NCBI GenBank assembly: GCA_964559375.1
Contig: CAZLGE010000003.1
Location: 1 to 36,722, forward strand
Reading direction: 5' to 3'
DNA from: an uncultured Gammaproteobacteria bacterium
GTDB taxonomy: Bacteria; Patescibacteriota; Patescibacteriia; Patescibacteriales; UBA12465
Length of the DNA stretch: 36,722 nucleotides
This document shows, piece after piece, positions 5,734 through 33,864 of the stretch (position 1 is its first letter; every line of letters begins with the position of its first letter). Both the position numbers and the translations under genes were made by a program. Below the pieces are notes generated by a model. The model made no database searches, was not told where the DNA came from, and worked only from the letters and a program-made list of their open reading frames with translations.

Positions 5734-8223
5734 ATGGCTGGTAATTCCATCAAGATCAAGGGCGCCCGCACTAATAATCTTAAAGATGTCAGTCTGGATC
5801 TGCCGCGGGACAGCCTGGTGGTAATTACTGGTTTATCCGGTTCAGGCAAGTCTTCACTGGCGTTCGATACTGTCTATGCCGAAGGGCAGCGCCGTTACGT
5901 CGAATCTCTCTCGTCTTATGCCCGTCAATTCGTCGGCCTCATGGACAAGCCCGATGTCGATCTGATCGAAGGTTTGTCACCCGCTATTTCCATTGATCAG
6001 CGCACCGTCGGCCATAATCCGCGTTCCACGGTCGGTACGATTACCGAAATTTATGATTATTTACGTCTTCTCTACGCTCGTGCCGGCGTTCCCAACTGTT
6101 TGCATTGTGGCCGGAAGCTGAAGAAGGAGGCCGAGCAGAAGAAGACCGTCAAGATCGTCCGCGGCCGGGAGAGCAAGACGACTAAGAGAGAGACATCCTT
6201 TGTCTGCGCGGCTTGTGAATATCGGCGCGCCGAGCCCGAGCCCCGGGATTTTTCGTTCAACTCCGCCCGCGGCGCTTGCCCGGACTGTGGCGGTCTGGGG
6301 ACCCAGTCGGAAGTGGATCCGGAACTAGTCTTTAATCATAATCTGAGCATCCCTGAAGGGGCGCTTAAACCTCTATCGCACGCTAACTTGAGCGCTAGCG
6401 GCCTGCTTGATGAACTTGAGTCACTGGCCGAGCGCCACAATTTTAGTCTGCGGCCGGCCATTAAAGATCTCGCGCCGGAAGAGAAAGAATTGATTTTGAA
6501 GGGCGATCAGGAATTTAGCGGTTTGCTTGCTAAGCTAACTGAAAAGTATCGCGAAACAAAATCTAGCTTCGTTAAACAGGAGATTGAAAAGGCGATGCGG
6601 ACGGCTGTCTGTTTGGGTTGCCATGGTGCCCGCCTGCGCTCCGAAGCTTTGGCCGTGAAGATTGGTGGTCTGTCGATCATCGACGTGACCGACCGCAGCC
6701 TTGAGGATCTCGCGACTCTTTTGGAATCCTGGTTAAAAGACAGTACTCTTCTTAACGGCCGAGCGGCCATCATGGAACCAATTATCAAGGAAGTCCTGAA
6801 GAACCTGGTTTTCTTAGCCAATGTCGGTTTAGGGTATTTGACCCTCAGCCGTTCGGCGTCGACCCTGTCCGGGGGCGAAGCACAGCGTATCCGGCTGGCT
6901 TCGCAGGTCGGGTCGACCTTAAGCGGGGTTTTATATGTGCTTGATGAGCCGTCAATCGGCTTGCATCAGCGCGATAATGATAAACTGATAGAGACCTTAA
7001 AAAAACTCCGTGACAATGGTAATACTGTCATCGTTGTGGAGCACGATGCCGCGACCATGCTAGCAGCCGATTGGCTTGTGGATATCGGCCCAGGAGCAGG
7101 TGATGCAGGGGGCCGTGTCTTATATGCCGGCGCGCCCGAAGGGATACGGAAGGTGGCCGAGTCTTTGACCGGTGCTTACTTGGCTGGCAGGAAAGCCATT
7201 AAGATGCCGGAACGATTCCGGCCTGGCAACGGTCAGGTGATTTGCATTAAAGGAGCGACCGAACATAATTTGAAAAATATTGATGTTGAGATTCCTCTGG
7301 GCAAGCTGGTGGCGATTACCGGCGTATCAGGCTCAGGGAAGTCCACGCTCATGAGTGATATTCTAGCGAACGCTCTGAGCCGCAAGTTTTATCGTGCTAA
7401 GGTTGAACCCGGAGACCATAAGCTCCTGACTGGGCTTGAGTATATCGACAAGGTGATCGATATTGATCAATCACCGATCGGTCGGACGCCGCGCTCGAAT
7501 CCCGCTACCTATACCGGCCTGTTCACTTATATCCGCGATCTGTTCGCGGCTCTGCCGGAAGCGCGAGTTAAGGGTCTGGGCGCCGGTCATTTTTCTTTCA
7601 ATGTTCCCGGTGGCCGCTGTGAAAATTGTTCGGGCGACGGGGTGATCAAGGTGGAAATGCAGTTTTTGTCTGATGTTTATTTAACCTGTGAGGTTTGCGG
7701 CGGGCGTAAGTTCCAGCCGAAGGTTCTTGATGTTCAGTATCAGGGCAAGGATATTTCCGAAGTGTTGGAGATGACCGTGGCTGAAGCCAAGGATTTTTTC
7801 AAGAATCATTCAGCCATCAGTCAGAAACTCAAGACTCTCGATGAGGTTGGTTTGGGATATATCAAGCTTGGCCAGAGTGCCACGACTTTTTCCGGCGGCG
7901 AAGCACAGCGCATTAAGCTGGCCACGGAACTCTCTCGTCGGGCCACCGGCAAGACCCTCTATATATTAGATGAGCCGACCACTGGCCTACATTTTGCCGA
8001 TATTGACCGTTTGCTCAAAGTTTTGAACATGCTGGTCGATCAGGGTAATACTGTCCTTATTATCGAGCATAATCTCGATGTCATTAAATCCGTGGATTGG
8101 ATAATCGATCTTGGCCCGGAGGGCGGTGACAGCGGCGGTTATTTGGTTGCGGTCGGTACGCCGCCGCAGGTGGCGGCGACGGATAAGAGCTATACGGGAC
8201 AATACTTGAAGAAAGTCATCTAA
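5734..8223 (+). CDS. uvrA: Excinuclease ABC subunit A-family protein, short form lacking the UvrB-binding domain
   Basis: 829 aa. Two ABC modules are present: Walker [10 protein letters not shown] and GVSGSGKST, and signatures [12 protein letters not shown] and [12 protein letters not shown]. Zn-finger cysteines are CPDC, CLGC and CENC...CEVC. The segment between CLHC and CAAC is only about 40 aa. Confidence 0.9.
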
Positions 8224-9114: not shown

Positions 9115-9612
9115 TTATAATTCCGCCAATATTTTAAGTTCTAATTTTCCCGACTCGGTATCTAGTGCGGCAAAAGTTGCCTGATGGAAAGTGCCGGACA
9201 GGTTGCCAGGATTGGCGACGATCATTGGCCCTCTTTTATCCAGCCAAGGCTGGTGCGTGTGGCCATAGAAGATAAAATCTGGTGTCTGACTAGAAAGAGT
9301 TAGGACCTTTTTGATATTTACCGGTTCATGGCAGAAACCGATTGGGCATCCGTCCAGTTCCTGGTAGCCAGCCCGGCCGTGATAACTGATGTTCCGATAG
9401 GAATTAAGGCGGTCAGGTTCAAAAAGTTCGCCGTTACCACTGACCATAAAAATCTCGCCGCTAAATTCTCGGGCGAGATAAGACAAAGTCTCTTCGGTTG
9501 TGGTATCGCCGCAAAAGATGATCTTTTTTACCTTATTATGACGACACCAATCCAGGCATTTCGCCAGGTTCGGGATGTTGTCGTGGATGTCAGAGATGAC
9601 GGCGATCAGCAT
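9115..9612 (-). CDS. YfcE/MJ0936-family metallophosphoesterase
   Basis: 165 aa. Calcineurin-like motifs are in the canonical order: ISDIHDN, CGD, GNGE, GHTH. Confidence 0.8.
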   Translation of the reverse strand: MLIAVISDIHDNIPNLAKCLDWCRHNKVKKIIFCGDTTTEETLSYLAREFSGEIFMVSGNGELFEPDRLNSYRNISYHGRAGYQELDGCPIGFCHEPVNIKKVLTLSSQTPDFIFYGHTHQPWLDKRGPMIVANPGNLSGTFHQATFAALDTESGKLELKILAEL

Positions 9613-9636: not shown

Positions 9637-10212
9637 TTACTTCTTGCCACGGAGCTTGATTTCATAAGCCATCTGTTCGAGTTTGCGCAGGTGCCCGCGG
9701 GCCTGGTCGTATTTGGTGCGCAGATAACCGGTCAGGTCGAAATCAACGAGCTGGGACATGATCTCTTCGGCCAGTTTTTTGATTTTAGCCACTTCGCTGA
9801 AGCGGCCGTCTGCCGCCCGGTTGGTGGCATAGCGTACGAGTTCGCCGATCAAGTCGCAGATGCCGCCTAGGTAACTCTCATAATCCAGGGCCAACCCGGC
9901 CACCGGAGAAACCTGCTTATCTTTTATGACATCATAAAAAGTACGGCTCTCCAGATATTCCTCTGCCGCCGCCCGGTAGCTGCCTTCGCGACGTAGACGG
10001 TCTGCTCCGAAGCGCGCTTCTAATTCGCTGAGTGCTTTTTCCACGTCCTTCAGCTTGGCCGCCGCCGTTTTTATGTCGTCCCGCTGCAGGGCAAAGATAG
10101 TTTTCTTGGCTTCGAACAAAATGTTGTTGGCCGCGGAGTTTATTTGCCGACGCTCAGATTCATTAGCTTGGTAATCGGTCTTGAGACGGTCTAATAGTTT
10201 CTTATCTATCAT
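9637..10212 (-). CDS. Translin-family (TRAX/C3PO-like) protein
   Basis: 191 aa and all-helical. YLGGICDLIGELVRYA and the C-terminal LRTKYDQARGHLRKLEQMAYEIKLRG line up with eukaryotic translin/TRAX (YL.G..DLTGEL.R ... LRK.YD......KKVE...Y....RG). AEEYLES matches the TRAX QEYVEA helix. Confidence 0.7.
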   Translation of the reverse strand: MIDKKLLDRLKTDYQANESERRQINSAANNILFEAKKTIFALQRDDIKTAAAKLKDVEKALSELEARFGADRLRREGSYRAAAEEYLESRTFYDVIKDKQVSPVAGLALDYESYLGGICDLIGELVRYATNRAADGRFSEVAKIKKLAEEIMSQLVDFDLTGYLRTKYDQARGHLRKLEQMAYEIKLRGKK

Positions 10213-10247: not shown

Positions 10248-13200
10248 TTAAATGACGCGGAAAACCTCTTCCAAACTGGTCTCGCCGGCGAGAGCCTTGA
10301 GGACGCCATCCTGGAGCATGGTTATCGTGCCGCCGGCTACTGCTGCTTCCTCTATTTCCGTGTCGGTCACATTATCAGTCTGGATCAGTTTCTGGATGCG
10401 GCTGTCCATGGGAATAGTCTCGTACAGACCGAGTCGTCCTTTATAACCGATCTGTCCGCATTTATCGCAGCCGACAGCCTCGTAGAAATTTAACTTCGTG
10501 GGGACGGTAACAGCCGGATTCTTGATGGCCACCAGGACAGCCTTGACTCGGTCTAGATCGGCAGGAGCCGGCTGGGCAGCCTTCTTACAATAAGGGCAGA
10601 GCTTGCGGACCAAGCGCTGACCGATTGTGAAATCGATGGCGTTGGCCAGGGTCTGCCGGTCGAGGCCTAGTCCGGCGATGCGGGAGATGGCGCCGGCGGC
10701 ACTGTTGGCATGGATGGTAGACAGAACAAGATGGCCGGTCATCGAGGCCTCCATGGCGATTCTCGCTGTTTCGCTGTCGCGGATTTCGCCTATCATCATG
10801 ATATTCGGATTCTGCCGGAGCAGTGAGCGCATGGCGGACGCGAAAGTATAGCCCCGCTCTTCGTCAATCTGGGTCTGCATCACGCCCGGCAGCTGGTATT
10901 CGATCGGATCTTCGACAGTGATTATCTTAACGTCCGGTTTGTTTAATTCATTTAGAATACTATAGAGGGTGGTAGTTTTTCCGGAGCCGGTCGGTCCAGT
11001 AGTGATGATAATTCCGCGGGTTTTCTTCATGGCCAGTTGTAGGGAATCGTAAGCCACGGAAGTGATGCCTAGCTTGGCCATATCGAGGTCGGAAGCGGAA
11101 GTGGTGAGCAGGCGGACGACGATGGTCTCGCCGTATCCTCCGGCGATGATGGATAAGCGGCAGTCTATTTTCCGCTCGGGCAGATAGATTGTGAAGCGGC
11201 CATCAAAGGTAGCCCGCTTGATGTTAGTCGGAGCGCCGGCCAGAATTTTAATTTCGGCGAGAAGTGGCAGATAACTGGTTTTGGGCAGGTTGAGGATGTC
11301 CTGGAGGACGCCGTCGATTCGGAAGCGTACTTTAACGTCGCGATCGGTCGGTTCGATGTGGATATCGCCCGCATCCGTGGCGGCGCCCAGCGCCATGACT
11401 AGCCCGATCAGCTCGGCGCTCGGGATTTCTTTGGCGGCGGCGGCGATATCCGTTAGATCGTGTCCCAACTTTTTAGCTTTAGCCAATACTTCCTGGCTGA
11501 TCTTGACGCCCCGTCCGATCGTCTGAGAGATAACCACGTCGTAAAGCTCGTTCACGTAATCAAAATTGCCGATGACGCGGTAGACTTCGTCGAGCGAAGT
11601 GACTCCTTCAAGAACTTTTAGGACGCCGTCCTGGAGCATCGTGATCATGCCGTCTTCAACCGCCTGTTGGAGTATCTTGAAGGACGGCGCTTGATCGACC
11701 GTCAGTTGTTTTATTTTGTCGTTAAGGGTGAATATCTCATAGATTCCGGTCCGTCCCTGATAACCGATGCCGTTACATTTTTCACAGCCAGGTCCGGCGG
11801 TGTAAATCTTTGGCAGGGTAGCCGGGATGTTGAGGCCGGCTTTTGGAGAGATGACTCCTAGTATTTTATTGACTTGTTCGTTTTCGAGCGGACTGAGTTC
11901 ATGTTCAAGGCGGCAGTTGGTGCAGAGCTTACGAACCAGGCGCTGGCCGATTACGGCATTGATCGCAGGCACCAAAAAATAAGGTTTGACGCCGATATCG
12001 ATGAGTCGCGGAATAGTGCCGGCCGAGTCGTTGGTATGGAGAGTCGAGAGAACCAGATGCCCGGTCAAGGAAGATTGGACAGCGATTTCCGCCGTTTCCA
12101 GATCGCGGATTTCACCGATCATAACTATGTTGGGATCTTGGCGCAGGATCGATCGCAGTCCCGAGGAAAATGTATAACCCCGTTTCACATCGACCTGGCT
12201 CTGGTTGATGCCGGCCAACTGATATTCGATAGGATCTTCTAGAGTGATGATTTTTGTTCCCGGGCGATTGAGCTGATTGAGTATTGAATAGAGGGTGGTG
12301 GTTTTACCTGAGCCGGTTGGGCCGACAGTTAAAATGAGGCCGTTTGGCTTGGCAATCTCTCTTTCCAGTATTGGCCTTATTTCTGGCCGGATGCCCAGTT
12401 CAGAGAATTCGACTGCCGCCGCCGCCGAATCAAGCAGGCGCATGACGACGCTTTCGCCGAAGGCGGTAGGCAGAAAAGAACAGCGTACCTCAATTTTTTT
12501 GGCCGTCAAATATATGGTGAATCGCCCGTCCTGCGGTTTGTCGGTGATATTAATTTTAACGCGCGCCAGAATCTTCAGGCGGGCGATGATCCGCTGCCAT
12601 TTGTCCGCTTTGACAGTGGCCGCTTCTTGGAGGACACCGTCGATGCGGATGCGGATCGCCACGCCAGCTTCCTCGGCTTCTATATGGATATCGCTGCCGC
12701 CCACCTTGAGAGCGGTGGCCAGTATCAGGGTAATGATATCGGTTATGTTCACGCGGTTAACTTCTTCGTCCAGACTCTTATAACTGGAGATCGCTTTTTG
12801 GAATTTTTGGAGGTCGGCCTCAGTAATCTCGACTCCGGAATCAATCTTCTTAGTCTTGGAGATAGATTTATAGGCTTCAATCGCGTGGTCGAAACTATTG
12901 GGCGAGATCAGATAGAGCCCCACTTCGGCGAAATATTGCTCTTTCAGACGATCCAGTTCCTCTATTACTTCGTCCGTTGGTTCGACGCAACCCAGGCGGA
13001 TATTAGTTCCATCATAGTAAAAAGGCGCCGCTTGGAGGAGGCGGGCTTGCTGTTCGGGGATGAGGATAAGCGCTTCAGGGCTCAGGGGGAAACGGGCCAG
13101 GTTTACATACTCTAGCCCGAGTGCTGCTGCCGCTTCCTTTGTTTCTCGTTCAATCTCTTTAAGATTGATTTCTTCTTGTTTTTTTGCAAAACGACCGGCG

Positions 13201-13259
13201 ACGCTCTCTTCGTCATCGGTCGGATCGGTCAAATTTTTGATGGAAGCAAAATCACTCAT
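10248..13259 (-). CDS. Tandem (double-module) type II/IV secretion-family ATPase, PilB/GspE-like
   Basis: 1003 aa. Module 1 (aa 1-563) has a GSPII_E_N-like domain, an N2 domain, Walker A GPTGSGKT (12300..12323), VMIGEIRD, GHLVLSTLHTN and CTNC...CEKC. Module 2 (aa 564-1003) has an N2 domain, Walker A GPTGSGKT (10974..10997), MMIGEIRD, GHLVLSTIHAN and CPYC...CDKC. Both modules end ...E(V)(Y/F)RVI. Confidence 0.9.
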   Translation of the reverse strand: MSDFASIKNLTDPTDDEESVAGRFAKKQEEINLKEIERETKEAAAALGLEYVNLARFPLSPEALILIPEQQARLLQAAPFYYDGTNIRLGCVEPTDEVIEELDRLKEQYFAEVGLYLISPNSFDHAIEAYKSISKTKKIDSGVEITEADLQKFQKAISSYKSLDEEVNRVNITDIITLILATALKVGGSDIHIEAEEAGVAIRIRIDGVLQEAATVKADKWQRIIARLKILARVKINITDKPQDGRFTIYLTAKKIEVRCSFLPTAFGESVVMRLLDSAAAAVEFSELGIRPEIRPILEREIAKPNGLILTVGPTGSGKTTTLYSILNQLNRPGTKIITLEDPIEYQLAGINQSQVDVKRGYTFSSGLRSILRQDPNIVMIGEIRDLETAEIAVQSSLTGHLVLSTLHTNDSAGTIPRLIDIGVKPYFLVPAINAVIGQRLVRKLCTNCRLEHELSPLENEQVNKILGVISPKAGLNIPATLPKIYTAGPGCEKCNGIGYQGRTGIYEIFTLNDKIKQLTVDQAPSFKILQQAVEDGMITMLQDGVLKVLEGVTSLDEVYRVIGNFDYVNELYDVVISQTIGRGVKISQEVLAKAKKLGHDLTDIAAAAKEIPSAELIGLVMALGAATDAGDIHIEPTDRDVKVRFRIDGVLQDILNLPKTSYLPLLAEIKILAGAPTNIKRATFDGRFTIYLPERKIDCRLSIIAGGYGETIVVRLLTTSASDLDMAKLGITSVAYDSLQLAMKKTRGIIITTGPTGSGKTTTLYSILNELNKPDVKIITVEDPIEYQLPGVMQTQIDEERGYTFASAMRSLLRQNPNIMMIGEIRDSETARIAMEASMTGHLVLSTIHANSAAGAISRIAGLGLDRQTLANAIDFTIGQRLVRKLCPYCKKAAQPAPADLDRVKAVLVAIKNPAVTVPTKLNFYEAVGCDKCGQIGYKGRLGLYETIPMDSRIQKLIQTDNVTDTEIEEAAVAGGTITMLQDGVLKALAGETSLEEVFRVI

Positions 13260-13287: not shown

Positions 13288-14271
13288 CTAGGCCGAGCGG
13301 CGGCCGAAGAGCCGCTCTAATTTGGCTTGTCCGCCTTTTTCAGTCAGGCTCAGGAAGAGATTGGTCCAGGCGGCGACTTGGAAAGTGGTGAGAGCCGAAC
13401 CAAAGATGACGACAACCAGGATCGCTAGGAGTAGGATGAGTATGGCTAGCCAGCTACTGCTGGAGATGAGGGCGAGGACGAAGATCGGCAGGAAGAAAAT
13501 AGCGAGGATGATGAGCAGCACGGCACTCGCCAGAAAGTTTATGATGAACAATATTATGGCTGCTTCTAGGCTGACCAGCCAATTTTTCCGAAATAATTTT
13601 TCTCCGGCCTCGAGAGCGATGAGAGCGGATTTATCATCGAGGACTCTATAGGCAATCGCATATTTGATGATAAGTGATAGGCTGACGGCGACCGGTATGA
13701 AGATGACAAAGAGGACGGTGTAGGCGATGGCCAAGAGATTGGTATCATTCCAGGCCATAAACAAGAGCGGTAGGCTGACAATAAAGAAAGCTAAGGTAAC
13801 CAAGAATTTAATCAGTATATTTAAGCCGAGAAGAGACCAAAAATGGCCGTGGCCGCTTGTTAAACCGTCGCGAATGGTAAGTGATTGATTCTTTTTTCGA
13901 GGGCTAAGTATTTTTTTCACTTCTCCCACGAGGGCGGCCTGCGCGGTGACAGCCAGCCAGAGGAAGAAGATGAGGAGGGCGCCGGTTATGATCATAAGTG
14001 ACAGGCCACTGAGGATAGTCGCGAAGTCATAGCGGAAGAGATCGCCCAGACCGAACAAAAAATCACGACCTAGATCGCCGAGCGCCAAGATGTTATTCAG
14101 GCGGAAATATGAGCCCTCGATGAGCCCCTGGCTCAGACTTTGTGAAAATATCTGGTATTCCCAGGAGCCGCTGCCGGCGACAACGGCGGCGAACAGACCG
14201 AAAAACCACAGATATTTGTGTTGCCAGGTTACGAGCCAGGCCTGTTTGAATAAGATTCTGTAAGAGAACAT
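13288..14271 (-). CDS. Polytopic integral membrane protein, function unknown
   Basis: 327 aa with about 6-7 hydrophobic helices and no motif I can assign. It sits 28 nt upstream of the tandem ATPase gene on the same strand. Confidence 0.7.
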   Translation of the reverse strand: MFSYRILFKQAWLVTWQHKYLWFFGLFAAVVAGSGSWEYQIFSQSLSQGLIEGSYFRLNNILALGDLGRDFLFGLGDLFRYDFATILSGLSLMIITGALLIFFLWLAVTAQAALVGEVKKILSPRKKNQSLTIRDGLTSGHGHFWSLLGLNILIKFLVTLAFFIVSLPLLFMAWNDTNLLAIAYTVLFVIFIPVAVSLSLIIKYAIAYRVLDDKSALIALEAGEKLFRKNWLVSLEAAIILFIINFLASAVLLIILAIFFLPIFVLALISSSSWLAILILLLAILVVVIFGSALTTFQVAAWTNLFLSLTEKGGQAKLERLFGRRSA

Positions 14272-20834: not shown

Positions 20835-21437
20835 ATGATTAACCCCAAGATAGAACGGACGCTTGTAATCTTGAAGCCTGACGCCGTTCAGCGCGGACTT
20901 ATCGGTGAGACCATCCGACGGATTGAGAACACCGGGCTCAAGCTGATTGCCCTCAAGATATCTTCCGCCGCTGAAGACCAACTGTGGAAGCATTATAATA
21001 AAGATGAAGCCTGGTTTATCCAGAAGGGAGAGCGCATTGTCGAAGAGCGGAAAGCGGCTGGCATGCCAGTCGATAAGGAGGCGCTCGAATACGGTAAAGA
21101 CATCATCCGGGCGCTCGTCAAATTTATGAGCGCTGGTCCTGTCGTGCCGATGATTTGGGAAGGCAATCAGGCGGCCGGCATCGTTAAGAAGATCGTCGGG
21201 TCCACCGAGCCGCTGTCTTCGGACGCTGGTACGATCCGCGGCGACTATACTTTAGATTCATATGAGCTGGCCAGCCTTGATGAACGCGCTGTTCGCAATC
21301 TTGTTCATTGCTCCGACCCCGCTGAGGATGCCTTAAGGGAAATTCCGCTCTGGTTTTCGGAAGAAGAGATTTTGAAGTACCGGCTGATCGCGGAGCAGAT
21401 ATTGTACGATATTAACTTGGACGGCCTGAAGGAATAA
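20835..21437 (+). CDS. ndk: Nucleoside-diphosphate kinase, long variant
   Basis: 200 aa. NDK landmarks are ERTLVILKPDAVQRGLIGE, MSAGPVVPMIWEG, GTIRGDY and NLVHCSD (catalytic His retained). Compared with ~140-150-aa NDKs it has an insert of about 30 aa and a C-terminal extension. Confidence 0.85.
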   Translation: MINPKIERTLVILKPDAVQRGLIGETIRRIENTGLKLIALKISSAAEDQLWKHYNKDEAWFIQKGERIVEERKAAGMPVDKEALEYGKDIIRALVKFMSAGPVVPMIWEGNQAAGIVKKIVGSTEPLSSDAGTIRGDYTLDSYELASLDERAVRNLVHCSDPAEDALREIPLWFSEEEILKYRLIAEQILYDINLDGLKE

Positions 21438-29760: not shown

Positions 29761-32700
29761 ATGGCGGAGCTCCTTAGCCAACTGAACCCCGCTCAGCATC
29801 AGGCCGCCACCCACGAGGACGGGCCGCTACTTATCGTTGCTGGGGCCGGGACGGGGAAGACGACAGTTCTTGTGAACCGCCTGGCTTACCTGGCGGTAGA
29901 GAAGAAGATCCCGACGGACAATCTTCTTCTTTTGACTTTTACGGAGAAAGCCGCTGGTGAGATGGAAGAGCGAGCCGATAAGATTCTGCCGTACGGCTAC
30001 GTCGACCTTTGGATCAGTACCTTTCACAGTTTCGGGGAACGCGTGCTCAGAGAGTTCGGGCTCGACATTGGCCTGGGTGCCGGCTTCCGGCTGCTGACCG
30101 AAACCGACCAGTGGGTGCTCATCAAGAAGAATCTCGACCGTTTCCGTCTCGATTATTATCGTCCACTCGGCAACCCCACCAAGTTCATCTCCGAACTCAT
30201 CAAGCACTTTTCCCGCCTCAAGGACGAGAATATTTCGCCGGCCGAATATCTGAAACACGTTGAGGAGTTGGAGTCTGACCAGGATAACCGACTGGGCGGA
30301 CAGAGCATCGGCAAGCGGGCGCCGGCCGAAGGTGAGGCAATGGAGATCGGCCGCCTCAAGGAGCTGGCCGAAGCTTATCATACTTACAACGAGCTCCTAG
30401 TCGAGAACAATCTGCTAGATTTTGGCGATTTAATCCTTTATACTTTGAAACTTTTTAGGGAACGGCCCAACATCCTAGAGTTTTACCGACGGAAGTTCCG
30501 CTATATCATGGTCGACGAATTTCAAGATACGAATTGGGCACAGTATGAGCTGGTCAAGTTGCTGGCGGCGCCCGGAAACAACCTGGTCGTGGTCGGAGAC
30601 GATGATCAGTGCCTGCCTGGCGATACTTTAGTCTTGACCAAGCAGGGAGAGAAAAAGATCAGGATGATTAAGACCGGGGATGAAGTGGCTACGGCCGTCG
30701 GTCGGGGCAGTTTGGGCTATAGTCGTGTTAATCAGGTCAGCCGTAATAAAAAGACGGCTCGGTTTTTGACTTTTACCACAAAGTCAGGGCGGAAGATTAC
30801 CGCGACTGATAATCATAAGTTTTTTTGTTTTACGCCGCGCATATCCGGCCGCAAACACTACTATGTCTACCTGATGTATAAACAGGGCTTAGGTTGGCGC
30901 TTAGGCATGACGAGCGACCTGGCCACGCGCCTCCGCTTGGAAAGGGGAGGCGATAAGATAATAGCGGTCAGTCATCATAATATTCTCGAAGAAGCCAGAT
31001 ACAACGAGGTATTCTTGTCGCTGAGTTATGGTATCCCGACCGGCTGTTTTCAGGAGAGAGACGGCATAATGGATAAGAAAAAATGGAGTGAGCGTCTTTA
31101 TAAAGAATTAAAAACAGAAGATGGAGTTCGGCGCCTGGCCCGTGATTTGCATATCGATTTGGCTTCGCCACCCTATACCCTGGAAGCGGTGAACCGCGGC
31201 AGTAAGTTGCGCCTCAAGATAAATTTGGAAATGTGTCATCGCAATTACCCTTCTAAAACAGCCCGTAGGGGCTGGATGTCTGCCCCGCAGATATCTCATA
31301 ATTTAACGATCGATACCAGTGACCAGATGGCCATCTTAAAGTTAGAAAAGATGGGTTTTAAGTTGAAAAAAAGTATCGCTGGAAAAAGACTGCGTCTGTA
31401 TGACAGAGATCTAAAATATCTAGGCAAAGTCGCTCGCCAGATACAACAGGAGATTGGCGGGTTTATTGAGCCGCAGATGCGGATCGCTAGAGTTAAAGAA
31501 AAATATTTAAAAGCCCTGGTTATCCCGGCCAAGAATATTTTTCCCGGCATGTTTTTGCCGGTCGTGACCGGTGAGGGTTTAGTATATGAAGAAGTGGCGG
31601 GGCGGGTGGAAAAGAGGCGGACGGCTACTGTTTATGATTTAGAAATCGAGCGAACCCATAATTTTATAGCTAACGGCATTGCGGTCCATAATTCCATATA
31701 TAAATTCAGGGGCGCTTCTTTGTCCAACATACTACAGTTTAAAGACGATTATCCATCCACCCGAGAGATAGTTTTAAGTGAGAATTACCGTTCTCGTCAG
31801 GAGATCTTGGATCAAGCCTATGATTTTATCCAGCACAACAATCCTAATCGTCTGGAAATAAAACTGAAAACTTCTAAACGCCTTTTGGCTAAAGGGCTTG
31901 TCTCCAAGAAGATATGTCCGGAGCCGGGGGTCCAATATTTAAATTTTGATTCCCACGCTGACGAAGTCTCTTACGTCGTGCAGAAGATCGCCGCTCTCTA
32001 TGAAGCGGGCCAAGCGGAAGGAACTAGTTGGTCGGACTTTGCCATCTTAGTCCGGGCGAACGATACAGCTGAGGCCTATGTTAAAGAATTGAGCCGCCGG
32101 AATATTCCCAATCAGTTCATGTCCTGGCGCGGCCTCTATTATAAGCCGCTCATCCTCGATATCCTGGCCTATTTTCGCCTGCTTGATAATTACCACGAGT
32201 CGGCCGCCCTGTTCCGTGTCCTGAATATGGAAGCTTTTAAGGTTTCCCATCCGGACCTTATTACGATTAATAAGATGGCGGCGCGCAAAGTCTGGTCGCT
32301 CTACGAAGCGCTTAAGAATGTGAATGCGATCCCGGCTGTAGACGCTAAAAGCGTGAACAATATAAACAAACTACTGTCGCTTATCGAGCGTCATTCGCAG
32401 CTAGCGGCGACGGCTAAGCCGACTAAGCTCTTTTTACACTTTGCCTATGACTCTGGCTTGCTTGCCAATTTGGATCGCGATCGAGATGTCGAGCTGTTTT
32501 CTTATCTCAACCAATTCTATCAGAAGATCAAGAAGTTGGAGGAAGCCGAGCCAGATTTGCGACTTAAAGATTTTTTGGCGACCATCAATTTAGAACTTGA
32601 GGCGGGCGAGACTGGCGCCCTCAAGCTCGACTTCGCGGACAGTGACACTGTCCGCATCATGACTGTTCATGGTGCCAAGGGGCTGGAATTTCCTTATGTA

Positions 32701-33864
32701 TTCCTTGTGAACCTGGTTGATAAGAAGTTCCCGACCATCACTCGGAGTGAGAAAATTTCCATCCCCGATGCCCTGGTCCGGGAGAAGATCGCGGCGGAAG
32801 CGAAAGAAAGAACAGCCAGCCACTGGGAAGAAGAACGGCGGCTATTCTATGTCGCCTTAACCCGCGCTAAGATTGGGCTCTATCTAACTGGCGCTAAAGA
32901 TTACGGCGGTCTCCGGGAGAAGAAACCCTCGCGATTCATAACGGAGCTGGGGATAGCGAGCGGAACAGTGCCGGAATTACTGCTTAGCGAGAAGAACGAA
33001 TTCCTGCGCGATCTCCATCACTTGAATTCGCGCCCTCTTACTCTGAGTCGTCCCCAGGCGCTGGAAGACAAGTATCCTTTGCCGGAAAAATTTTCCTTTT
33101 CGCAGTTGGCCGCCTATTCCACTTGTCCGCTCCAATATAAATTCGCTTTCGTTCTCAGGGTACCGGTTCCCGGCGACAAGGCCTCGTTCATTTTTGGTCG
33201 TGTCCTCCATAACACCTTGTACAATTTTTTCTTACCGCTTCTGGACGAGCGTCGCCAAGCGAACTTATTTTCCGGTTTAGCCGAGACGAACAAGAAAGCG
33301 GTCCCCGAGCTTATCAGTGAGAAGCGTCTTCTGGAGATATATTCCGAGTTCTGGCAGCCCGACGGTTACGCTTCAAAAGACGAACGGGATAAATATCAGG
33401 CCAAGGGGCGGGCCGCTCTCCAGAAATTCTGGGAATCATATCGTGCTGCGTCCGCTCCGGAGATTATGTTTCTGGAAAAGAAATTTTCTTTTAAGCTAGG
33501 AAGCGACGTCATCAAGGGGACGATTGATCGCGTCGACAAACTATCCGACAGTACTCTCGAGATCATCGATTACAAGACGGGCCAAAGCAAGGAGAAGTTA
33601 GAATTTGCCGATAAGCGGCAGCTCATCCTCTATCAGCTATTTTTGGAAGAGTTTCTGGGTAAGCCAGTTAGCGTACTCAGTTTCTATTATCTGGAGAGCG
33701 GCGAGAAGCTTAGTTTTCAGGCGACCGAGAAGGACTTCACCAAGCTCCGCCTAGAGATGACGGCTCAGATTGCCGCGATCAAGCGGCGGGAGTTTGCCCC
33801 GACCCCGTCACTCATGTGCCGCTACTGTGATTTTCGCGATATTTGCGAGTTTCGTCAGGTTTAA
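29761..33864 (+). CDS. UvrD/PcrA-type SF1 helicase fused to a C-terminal AddB/Cas4-type PD-(D/E)xK Fe-S nuclease, interrupted by an intein
   Basis: 1367 aa. Helicase motifs are I (AGAGTGKTT), Ia (TFT), II (VDEFQDT), III split as VVGDDDQ | [11 protein letters not shown] ([18 protein letters not shown]). The nuclease domain (aa ~1110-1367; 33088..33861) has C1122, IDRVD...[13 protein letters not shown] and [10 protein letters not shown]. Without the intein the protein is 1006 aa. Confidence 0.9.
30610..31692 (+). mobile_element. Intein (361 aa) inserted in helicase motif III
   Basis: In frame and bounded by ...DDDQ | [10 protein letters not shown] ... NGIAVHN | SIYKFRGA. Cys1 is at 30610, block B TxxH is ITATDNH, block G is [13 protein letters not shown], and the +1 residue is Ser at 31693. 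Removing it restores the canonical [14 protein letters not shown]. Confidence 0.88.

Follow-up and report, generated by a model that had tools for sequence, protein, structure and literature searches.

The motor ATPases PilB, GspE (EpsE, PulE) and PilF, members of the PilT/VirB11-like superfamily, are built of an N2 domain (N2D) and a C-terminal domain (CTD) bearing Walker A and Walker B motifs, Asp and His boxes, Arg fingers and a tetracysteine zinc motif, and have in addition an N-terminal N1/GSPII domain; all solved members possess a single module of this kind and the PilB/GspE ring is a homo-hexamer. PilT has the fold common to the superfamily but neither the N1 domain nor the tetracysteine. 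The gene described here, located at 10248..13259 on the minus strand of a 36,722-nucleotide stretch of DNA (contig CAZLGE010000003.1 of assembly GCA_964559375.1, hereafter the window), encodes a protein of 1003 amino acids (aa) in which two modules, each with the same fold and the same set of motifs, follow one another in a single chain and are joined by a conserved linker; the N1 domain is present on half of the modules, and the gene lies apart from pilC, pilM and the pilin genes in the loci scanned. Since each chain has two modules, a ring made up of six identical chains with one module each does not hold in that form, and the explanation that we favor as a whole, with a probability of roughly one half, is that the protein is a covalently doubled motor ATPase of the PilB/GspE type which would form a six-module ring and serve filament assembly.

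Another long PilB-type motor is PilF of Thermus thermophilus (6F8L; ~890–913 aa), which matches the query with E 3e-92; however, only residues 382–884 of 6F8L can be aligned, and they align with module 1. Thermus PilF was enlarged by repetition of its N-terminal GSPII domains and has a single ATPase core, whereas in the tandem protein it is the core itself that is doubled. Two modules of the same family in one chain are also found in KaiC, ClpB/Hsp104, p97/NSF and EccC of the type VII secretion system, but here the likeness is one of analogy and not of homology, KaiC being RecA-like and the other natural tandem ring ATPases belonging to AAA+. Full-text literature searches yielded no paper describing a PilB/GspE protein in tandem or fused form, which allays the concern, voiced when the gene was first singled out from its sequence (the original prediction), that this might be an already characterized family; the sequences are public under a generic name, the tandem form itself being undescribed in the literature found, and no Pfam or NCBIfam model is specific to it.

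The tandem gene and its two modules

The open reading frame comprises 1003 codons and its sole stop is the terminal one, at 10248..10250. PF00437 (T2SSE) matches the protein in two stretches (E 4e-226) and MshEN (PF05157) matches it once, at aa 47–132 (E 3e-8), as expected from the profile check that the original prediction had proposed, and the layout is N1–(N2 + CTD)–conserved linker–(N2 + CTD). The halves encoded at 11571..13259 and 10251..11570 can be aligned end to end with 45% identity over 444 aa (E 6e-128). Module 1 consists of the N1/GSPII_E_N (MshEN-like) domain (12864..13121), which belongs to this module only, as had been claimed, of an N2 domain (aa 171–290; 12390..12749) that aligns to the PilB N2D of 5TSG and contains the Arg fingers RxRxDG and QDGR, and of an ATPase core, or CTD (aa 291–563; 11571..12389), with Asp box, Walker B (GEIRD), His box and four Cys, the Walker A being encoded at 12300..12323. 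Module 2, which follows on the same minus strand, consists of an N2 domain (aa 621–733; 11061..11399) that aligns to the GspE N2D of 4PHT/1P9R and contains the Arg fingers RFRIDG and FDGR, and of a CTD (aa 734–1003; 10251..11060) with Asp box, Walker B, His box and four Cys and a Walker A encoded at 10974..10997. Both modules terminate with the same ...EV(Y/F)RVI end.

The linker between the modules spans aa 564–620 (11400..11570, minus strand), and hardly varies over its first 21 residues (11508..11570, GNFDYVNELYDVVISQTIGRG), the invariant positions being G564, F566, Y568, L572, Y573, V576–T580 and G582–G584. Residues 567–580 are predicted to be helical in the AlphaFold model and the length of the connection is roughly 40–57 residues. 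The linker aligns with the N1 tail and the N1–N2 linker of module 1, and the alignment of the two modules indicates that module 2 has no full N1 domain and retains, within the linker, a remnant of the last N1 helix only. At the other end of the protein the N-terminal peptide (aa 1–25; 13185..13259, minus strand), with a mean column identity of 0.88 over 120 relatives, is among the best-conserved parts of the ATPase and yet is predicted to be disordered, residues 1–16 having a predicted local distance difference test (pLDDT) value below 50 in the AlphaFold monomer model; conservation combined with disorder could point to a short linear motif that binds a partner.

Several lines of evidence bear on the age and authenticity of the gene. 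The Walker A codons read ggcccaaccggctcaggtaaaacc in module 1 and ggaccgaccggctccggaaaaact in module 2, exactly as first quoted; between Walker A and His box the two modules are 74% identical as proteins (71/96) and 69% identical as DNA, the same codon being used at 32 of the 71 identical residues, and the halves share no stretch of identical DNA longer than 12 nucleotides. The repeat is therefore neither recent nor a product of assembly, in keeping with the original prediction, whose estimate by eye of about two-thirds identity for this stretch was slightly low as far as the protein is concerned. Two further assemblies, one from ENA and one from JGI, encode a nearly identical protein of 1003 aa, and in a collection of 5.8 billion proteins the best 120 clusters all have 1003–1007 aa, 70–100% identity and full coverage, the named entries among them being called “GspE/PulE family protein” and assigned to Patescibacteria or Candidatus Falkowbacteria. 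A scan of GTDB with one genome per species matched 288 relatives; the best 80 of these 288 are all essentially full length with 63–78% identity, and the full-length tandem gene is carried, among them, by the closed chromosomes CP066698.1 (977 kb) and OW818634.1. Of 85 independent loci, 84 have the frame without interruption, and the remaining one is cut by a contig end. The occurrence of an intact frame in so many independent assemblies establishes the continuity of the junction, where neither the stop nor the frameshift nor the chimeric join once feared was found, and bears out the initial claim of one uninterrupted reading frame with two complete modules. The gene is genuine and has been passed on vertically in Patescibacteria of the Candidatus Falkowbacteria type, and the family of 1003–1007-aa tandem proteins is typical of Candidatus Falkowbacteria.

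Motif conservation was scored across 120 members of the family. In both modules little or no variation was seen in the Walker A Lys, the Asp box, the Walker B motif and its catalytic Glu, the His box, the two Arg fingers of N2 and the four Cys, so that the initial statement that each module has its own complete set of motifs holds across these members and the worry that one of them might have lost the catalytic Glu or the Arg fingers is removed. In the N2 domains R203, R205, D207, G208 and D244–G245–R246 of module 1 are invariant (120/120), as are R645, R647, D649, G650 and D686–G687–R688 of module 2; the tetracysteines C446, C449, C492 and C495 and C888, C891, C931 and C934 are likewise invariant. 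The mean column identity is ~0.86 in each module. Consistent differences between the modules are QDGR versus FDGR and HTN versus HAN. In PilB of Geobacter metallireducens (PilB-Gm) the closed interface is characterized by the T411–H420 pair and the open interface by T411–R455 (PMC6858323). Transferred by alignment of the query to PilB-Gm, these residues correspond to T399, H408 and R443 in module 1, all of which, like the catalytic E383, are present in 120/120 sequences, and to T841 (119/120), H850 and R885 (120/120, like the catalytic E825) in module 2. Given the conservation of these catalytic and interface residues, each module appears able to hydrolyze ATP and to switch between open and closed states; both look catalytically competent, with ATPase activity predicted for the two of them.

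Comparison with known structures and profiles assigns both modules to the same branch of the superfamily. Each of them matches solved PilB, GspE and PilF proteins at E 1e-87 to 1e-101 and is 37–43% identical to solved PilB and GspE, the best solved relatives of module 2 being GspE 4PHT (E 6.5e-91) and PilB. In the AlphaFold monomer model (mean pLDDT 77.5) each module resembles PilB/GspE structures (5TSH, 5OIU, 5IT5) with template modeling (TM) scores of up to 0.90 on the target as determined with Foldseek, the values for module 1 against PilB 5TSH/5OIU being 0.87–0.90, whereas no chain of the PDB spans both modules (query TM ≤0.36). Against the NCBIfam equivalogs TIGR02533 (GspE, cut-off 630) and TIGR02538 (PilB, cut-off 676) module 1 scores 481 and 480 bits, respectively, and module 2 scores 425 and 391; the whole protein passes (895 bits for GspE and 861 for PilB) only by summing the two modules. 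The lesson for annotation is that a whole-protein equivalog score can exceed its threshold by adding two sub-threshold modules.

Two other candidate interpretations were considered and rejected. A fusion of PilB with PilT, joining extension and retraction in one chain, does not agree with the data, both modules being PilB/GspE-like and having the tetracysteine; they remain below the cut-off of TIGR01420 (PilT/PilU, 319 bits) with 182 and 149 bits, respectively, and an AIRNLIRE-like motif is found in none of the 120 relatives. Regulation by cyclic di-GMP through the MshEN domain relies on a tandem 24-residue motif, RLGxx(L/V/I)(L/V/I)xxG(L/V/I)(L/V/I)xxxxLxxxLxxQ (PMC5013675); unlike the MshE-type ATPases, the tandem family does not have it, even the relaxed form of the motif being found in 0/120 members.

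The constraint on the gene can be judged by comparison with its surroundings: the median identity of the ATPase is 70%, that of the neighboring arginyl-tRNA synthetase 57%, and the former value is the higher one in 65/65 genomes. Constraint on the tandem ATPase exceeds that on the aminoacyl-tRNA synthetase genes next to it.

Distribution and origin of the tandem layout

When 1.84 billion cluster representatives (50% identity clusters) were searched exhaustively with HMMER, 15,674 clusters were matched at E ≤ 1e-30, and two-module proteins account for 14 of the best 150. These 14 clusters, one of which contains KKU82539.1 from a Parcubacteria genome, comprise proteins of 978–1047 aa that are 35–62% identical to the query. 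In a neighbor-joining tree of the separated modules with 200 bootstraps, modules 1 and modules 2 of the query family form one clade each (200/200 in both cases), in agreement with the old age attributed to the duplication from the outset. The halves of three other proteins are each other's sisters, namely those of P0127 (200/200; the halves are 74% identical), P0128 (178/200) and P0140 (177/200), which represent independent duplications or, possibly, homogenization by gene conversion. The modules 2 of the other 11 clusters and of the query family group weakly (108/200), but this grouping is backed by a shared derived motif at the start of the linker, G-[DN]-x-x-Y-[IV]-x-x-L-Y ... R-G, present in all main-clade tandem clusters and in none of P0127, P0128 and P0140, and is therefore read as one ancient fusion. 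The tandem layout thus appears to result from one ancient fusion and at least three later, independent ones. A single ancient duplication giving rise to all tandem proteins was rejected in view of the three self-sister pairs and of the fact that the module 1 and module 2 sets are monophyletic in 0/200 replicates.

The closest single-module relatives of module 1, with ~55% core identity, are P0143, P0145 and P0147 (554–584 aa), which are as uncharacterized as the tandem form. The existence of free-standing paralogues of module 2 was mostly rejected, P0141, P0144 and P0134 being fragments of tandem genes and only P0171 a genuine case. Some distant tandem lineages have one altered module: in P0140 (1047 aa) the Walker A of module 1 reads GPTGSGTT, with Lys replaced by Thr, and the Asp box is altered, so that this module is probably non-catalytic; module 2 of P0131 has lost one Arg finger, and module 2 of P0132 has lost the zinc cysteines. 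Decay of this kind was not seen in the 120 members of the query family.

A mutation in a homo-hexamer affects all six sites, which makes it hard to test the firing order of PilB-type sites, be it C2 rotary or other. Covalently linked ClpX was engineered to test subunit coordination, and in a natural covalent dimer every second site would be genetically addressable, offering a means to dissect site coordination with a layout which, having arisen at least four times and having been kept under very strong constraint, evolution has proven to be workable.

Proposed assembly and function of the doubled motor ATPase

The hexamers of PilB are C2-symmetric with the CCOCCO pattern of closed (C) and open (O) interfaces, which has a period of three; subunits on opposite sides of the ring are equivalent and the pore rotates by 60 degrees per step, whereas the alternating OCOCOC (C3) pattern is a conformation of PilT (PMC6858323). 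On this point the original prediction does not fit: it had the alternating pattern in mind for PilB and proposed that the fusion would hard-wire this asymmetry, a notion that finds no support because the covalent period of two (A-B-A-B-A-B), in which different modules face each other across the ring, does not match the period of three of the PilB states. The trimer-of-dimers ring that it had put forward is, on the other hand, a plausible and reasonable proposal. In the model that we favor, three chains would close one six-module ring, a pseudo-hexamer, and this ring would go through the sequential rotary cycle over six sites that is usual for PilB, so that neither module could be allowed to decay. 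Both modules keep the T–H and T–R interface residues, which argues that each site runs a full cycle, and the retention of catalytic and interface residues in both would fit a rotary cycle without dead sites. The ring would carry three N1 domains (half of the usual number) and three N-terminal peptides available for partner binding, and the conserved linker may act as a structured strut fixing which modules are neighbors. Such a motor would most likely drive the assembly of a type IV filament, the genes for the pilins and the platform lying at other sites of the genome, with the product of the conserved upstream gene as a possible lineage-specific membrane partner.

This candidate partner is a 327-aa polytopic membrane protein encoded at 13288..14271 on the same minus strand, 28 nucleotides from the ATPase gene; the gene is directly upstream and co-oriented in 85/85 loci. 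The protein has no Pfam or NCBIfam match, its relatives match DUF7544/DUF7847 weakly, and its predicted structure is all-helical (pLDDT 81), with no significant match in the PDB and no resemblance to PilC/GspF. Its interpretation as a divergent PilC/GspF platform was consequently given up, neither profile nor structure comparison lending support to it. A homologue of the membrane protein (25% identity, E 3e-17) also precedes the gene of P0143, which of all the single-module relatives is closest to module 1.

Several circumstances weigh against the filament-motor model. The ATPase activity of the modules is a prediction from sequence, and each module alone stays below the equivalog cut-offs for GspE and PilB; the predicted TM score of the monomer model is 0.48, so that the packing of one module against the other is not fixed by it; the upstream membrane protein is not PilC/GspF-like, and in other tandem lineages its place is taken by a cytoplasmic DHH-like protein; finally, the link with type IV filaments is an assumption, as pilus genes are missing from the loci scanned. 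Furthermore, stacking of two rings is the rule among natural ring ATPases with tandem modules (KaiC, ClpB, p97/NSF, EccC).

This last consideration leads to the main rival, in which six chains form separate hexamers of module 1 and of module 2 that are stacked or tethered by the 57-residue linker, possibly with a different job for each ring if, for instance, only the N1-bearing one docks to the membrane machinery. We regard this assembly as possible, although the odds seem to us to be against it. Tandem duplications of ring ATPases usually do give stacked rings, a linker of ~40–57 residues is long enough for either geometry, and specialized rings would fit with the presence of N1 on module 1 only, with the separate module 1 and module 2 lineages (200/200 each) and with the consistent QDGR/FDGR and HTN/HAN differences. 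However, the rigid unit of PilT/VirB11-like ATPases is formed by N2D(n) and CTD(n+1), and their ring has two tiers as it stands (PMC6858323); a stacked double ring is not known for any member of this family, nor does the PDB contain a chain covering two modules. In addition, the nearly invariant and structured start of the linker suggests a fixed relation between neighbors rather than a loose tether, and recent independent duplications such as that of P0127 would function at once as in-plane neighbors. None of these points is decisive.

A different alternative concerns the function rather than the geometry, and holds that the protein is no pilus motor at all but an orphan PilB-like ATPase serving its conserved neighbors in another membrane-linked process, e.g., the uptake or handling of nucleic acids, which the auxotrophic cells need. 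The partners would be the DUF7544-like membrane protein in the query family and a DHH/NrnA-like protein in sister lineages, with translin, YfcE, polA and ruvB genes often nearby. Two genes are conserved, co-oriented neighbors of the ATPase on its downstream side: a translin-family gene (9637..10212, minus strand; PF01997, E 3e-20), found downstream in 81/85 loci, and a gene for a YfcE-family metallophosphoesterase (9115..9612, minus strand; Metallophos_2, E 7e-24), found in 79/85 loci, whose product scores above the cut-off of TIGR00040 (yfcE). The NCBIfam models nearest to the translin-family protein, which it matches with scores below their cut-offs, bear the name “haloacid dehalogenase superfamily protein”. 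The translin gene is absent from the loci of the more distant tandem and single-module relatives.

The distant tandem clusters P0122, P0123, P0125 and P0127 have a locus that is conserved among them and unlike that of the query family, in which polA and tsaE, a gene for a ~385-aa DHH/NrnA-like protein and the tandem ATPase gene follow one another, with ruvB further on. The single-module genes P0147 and P0145 lie in the same kind of locus (tsaE, DHH-like, polA), and from this shared synteny it follows that the tandem gene is the orthologue of the “orphan” single-module PilB-like gene of Patescibacteria, the tsaE/DHH-like/polA locus of which is conserved across other members of the phylum. The DHH-like proteins of three such loci (L086, 8823..9974; L091, 8710..9879; L094, 7736..8872) score 39–53 bits with NrnA against a cut-off of 350, and in the L086 copy the DHH tripeptide could not be found by eye; the DHH-like protein may be a non-catalytic partner with a DHH fold. 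The analysis thus points to an unstudied orphan PilB-like locus conserved across Patescibacteria, and to a candidate new membrane partner, in organisms that rely on surface filaments for their episymbiotic life.

The scan for filament genes gave negative results throughout: neither pilC, pilM, pilD or a pilin gene nor a prepilin-type signal motif was found in the 36.7-kb window, confirming what had been said at first about pilC, pilM and the pilins, no pilus genes were found in the 85 related loci or in the other tandem and single-module loci, and no prepilin motif in ~1.3 Mb of sequence, a survey of loci and not of whole genomes. The tandem or orphan gene is thus never in a pilus locus in ~95 loci, whereas in the cultured Saccharibacterium TM7x the two pilB genes belong to pilus loci and have pilC and pilM/N/O beside them (PMC12206443). 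A role outside filament assembly also receives support from the pairing of ATPase and membrane protein at the P0143 locus, which indicates that the association predates the fusion, from the recurrence of neighbors tied to nucleic-acid metabolism and from the conservation of the ATPase beyond that of the neighboring aminoacyl-tRNA synthetase genes, which suggests a core function. Against it stand the facts that synteny inside one family-level lineage is weak functional evidence, all the more so as the upstream gene differs between lineages, that the DHH-like matches are weak (~40–50 bits), that the membrane protein has no informative structural match and that the PilB/GspE-specific tetracysteine and the N1 domain are kept, the best matches being true PilB and GspE. 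Moreover, motor genes located apart from pilin genes are known, Thermus PilF being an example. Falkowbacteria have genes for type IV pilins (PMC8179133), and their genomes thus contain a filament system at some location. On the whole we consider the non-pilus function doubtful, though a serious contender to a motor for a type IV filament, which we take as the default.

In a further variant, which we deem unlikely, the ring would be a C3 pseudo-hexamer with non-equivalent modules 1 and 2, docked by its N1 domains and N-terminal peptides to the DUF7544-like membrane protein instead of to PilC/GspF and constituting an essential, Patescibacteria-specific membrane machine that descends from the motor of type IV filaments but has ceased to be a standard pilus system. 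Less probable still is that only one module works as an ATPase, the other being a pseudo-subunit with a structural or regulatory role, so that three sites of the ring would be active and three inactive, like those of the α3β3 of F1. Module 2 is indeed the more diverged from single-module relatives (41% mean identity, compared with 44% for module 1), and P0140, P0131 and P0132 provide examples of distant tandem lineages with one decayed module; but the query family retains the catalytic and interface residues of both modules in its 120 members, with equal conservation of the two, and dead sites would not be compatible with a rotary cycle in which six sites fire in sequence. That the tandem gene is an artefact, either a mis-assembled repeat or two adjacent genes joined by a sequencing error, is ruled out for practical purposes by the divergence of the halves (~69% DNA identity even in the most conserved stretch and 12 identical nucleotides at most), by the same intact frame in 84/85 loci from many projects and assemblers, closed chromosomes included, and by the strong purifying selection acting on the linker itself.

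Other genes and features of the window

The remainder of the window is ordinary chromosome, with genes for tRNA synthetases, gyrA, a uvrA-like gene, ruvB, queA, a signal peptidase and a sigma factor; no tRNA or Rfam match was found in its 36.7 kb. Nearly all 1-kb bins have a positive GC skew, and its cumulative curve climbs steadily across the window, which therefore appears to lie within one replichore, despite the presence of genes on both strands. As to the origin of the sequences, the loci L007, L011, L014 and L019 and ~35 others come from third-party annotation (TPA) metagenome-assembled genomes titled “uncultured Gammaproteobacteria bacterium”; borne by genomes with a Patescibacteria-specific cluster and a Falkowbacteria-like synteny, this label looks like a placeholder or an error.

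Three further genes, all on the plus strand, encode proteins of unusual size or composition. The product of 29761..33864 is a 1367-aa helicase-nuclease of the AddA/UvrD type (UvrD-helicase, UvrD_C, PD-(D/E)XK) with an intein in its helicase domain at approximately aa 282–644 (Intein_splicing, E 1e-14; Hint, E 6e-7). The nucleoside diphosphate kinase encoded at 20835..21437 has 200 aa and matches the Pfam NDK model in two separate stretches, which suggests an insertion or an extension with respect to the usual enzyme of ~140 aa; a 200-aa enzyme is encoded at the same position in the relatives L001, L003 and L005. The 829-aa UvrA-like protein encoded at 5734..8223 does not reach the length of canonical UvrA; it has two ABC_tran stretches and the UvrA DNA-binding domain, and its gene is kept at the same position in relatives.

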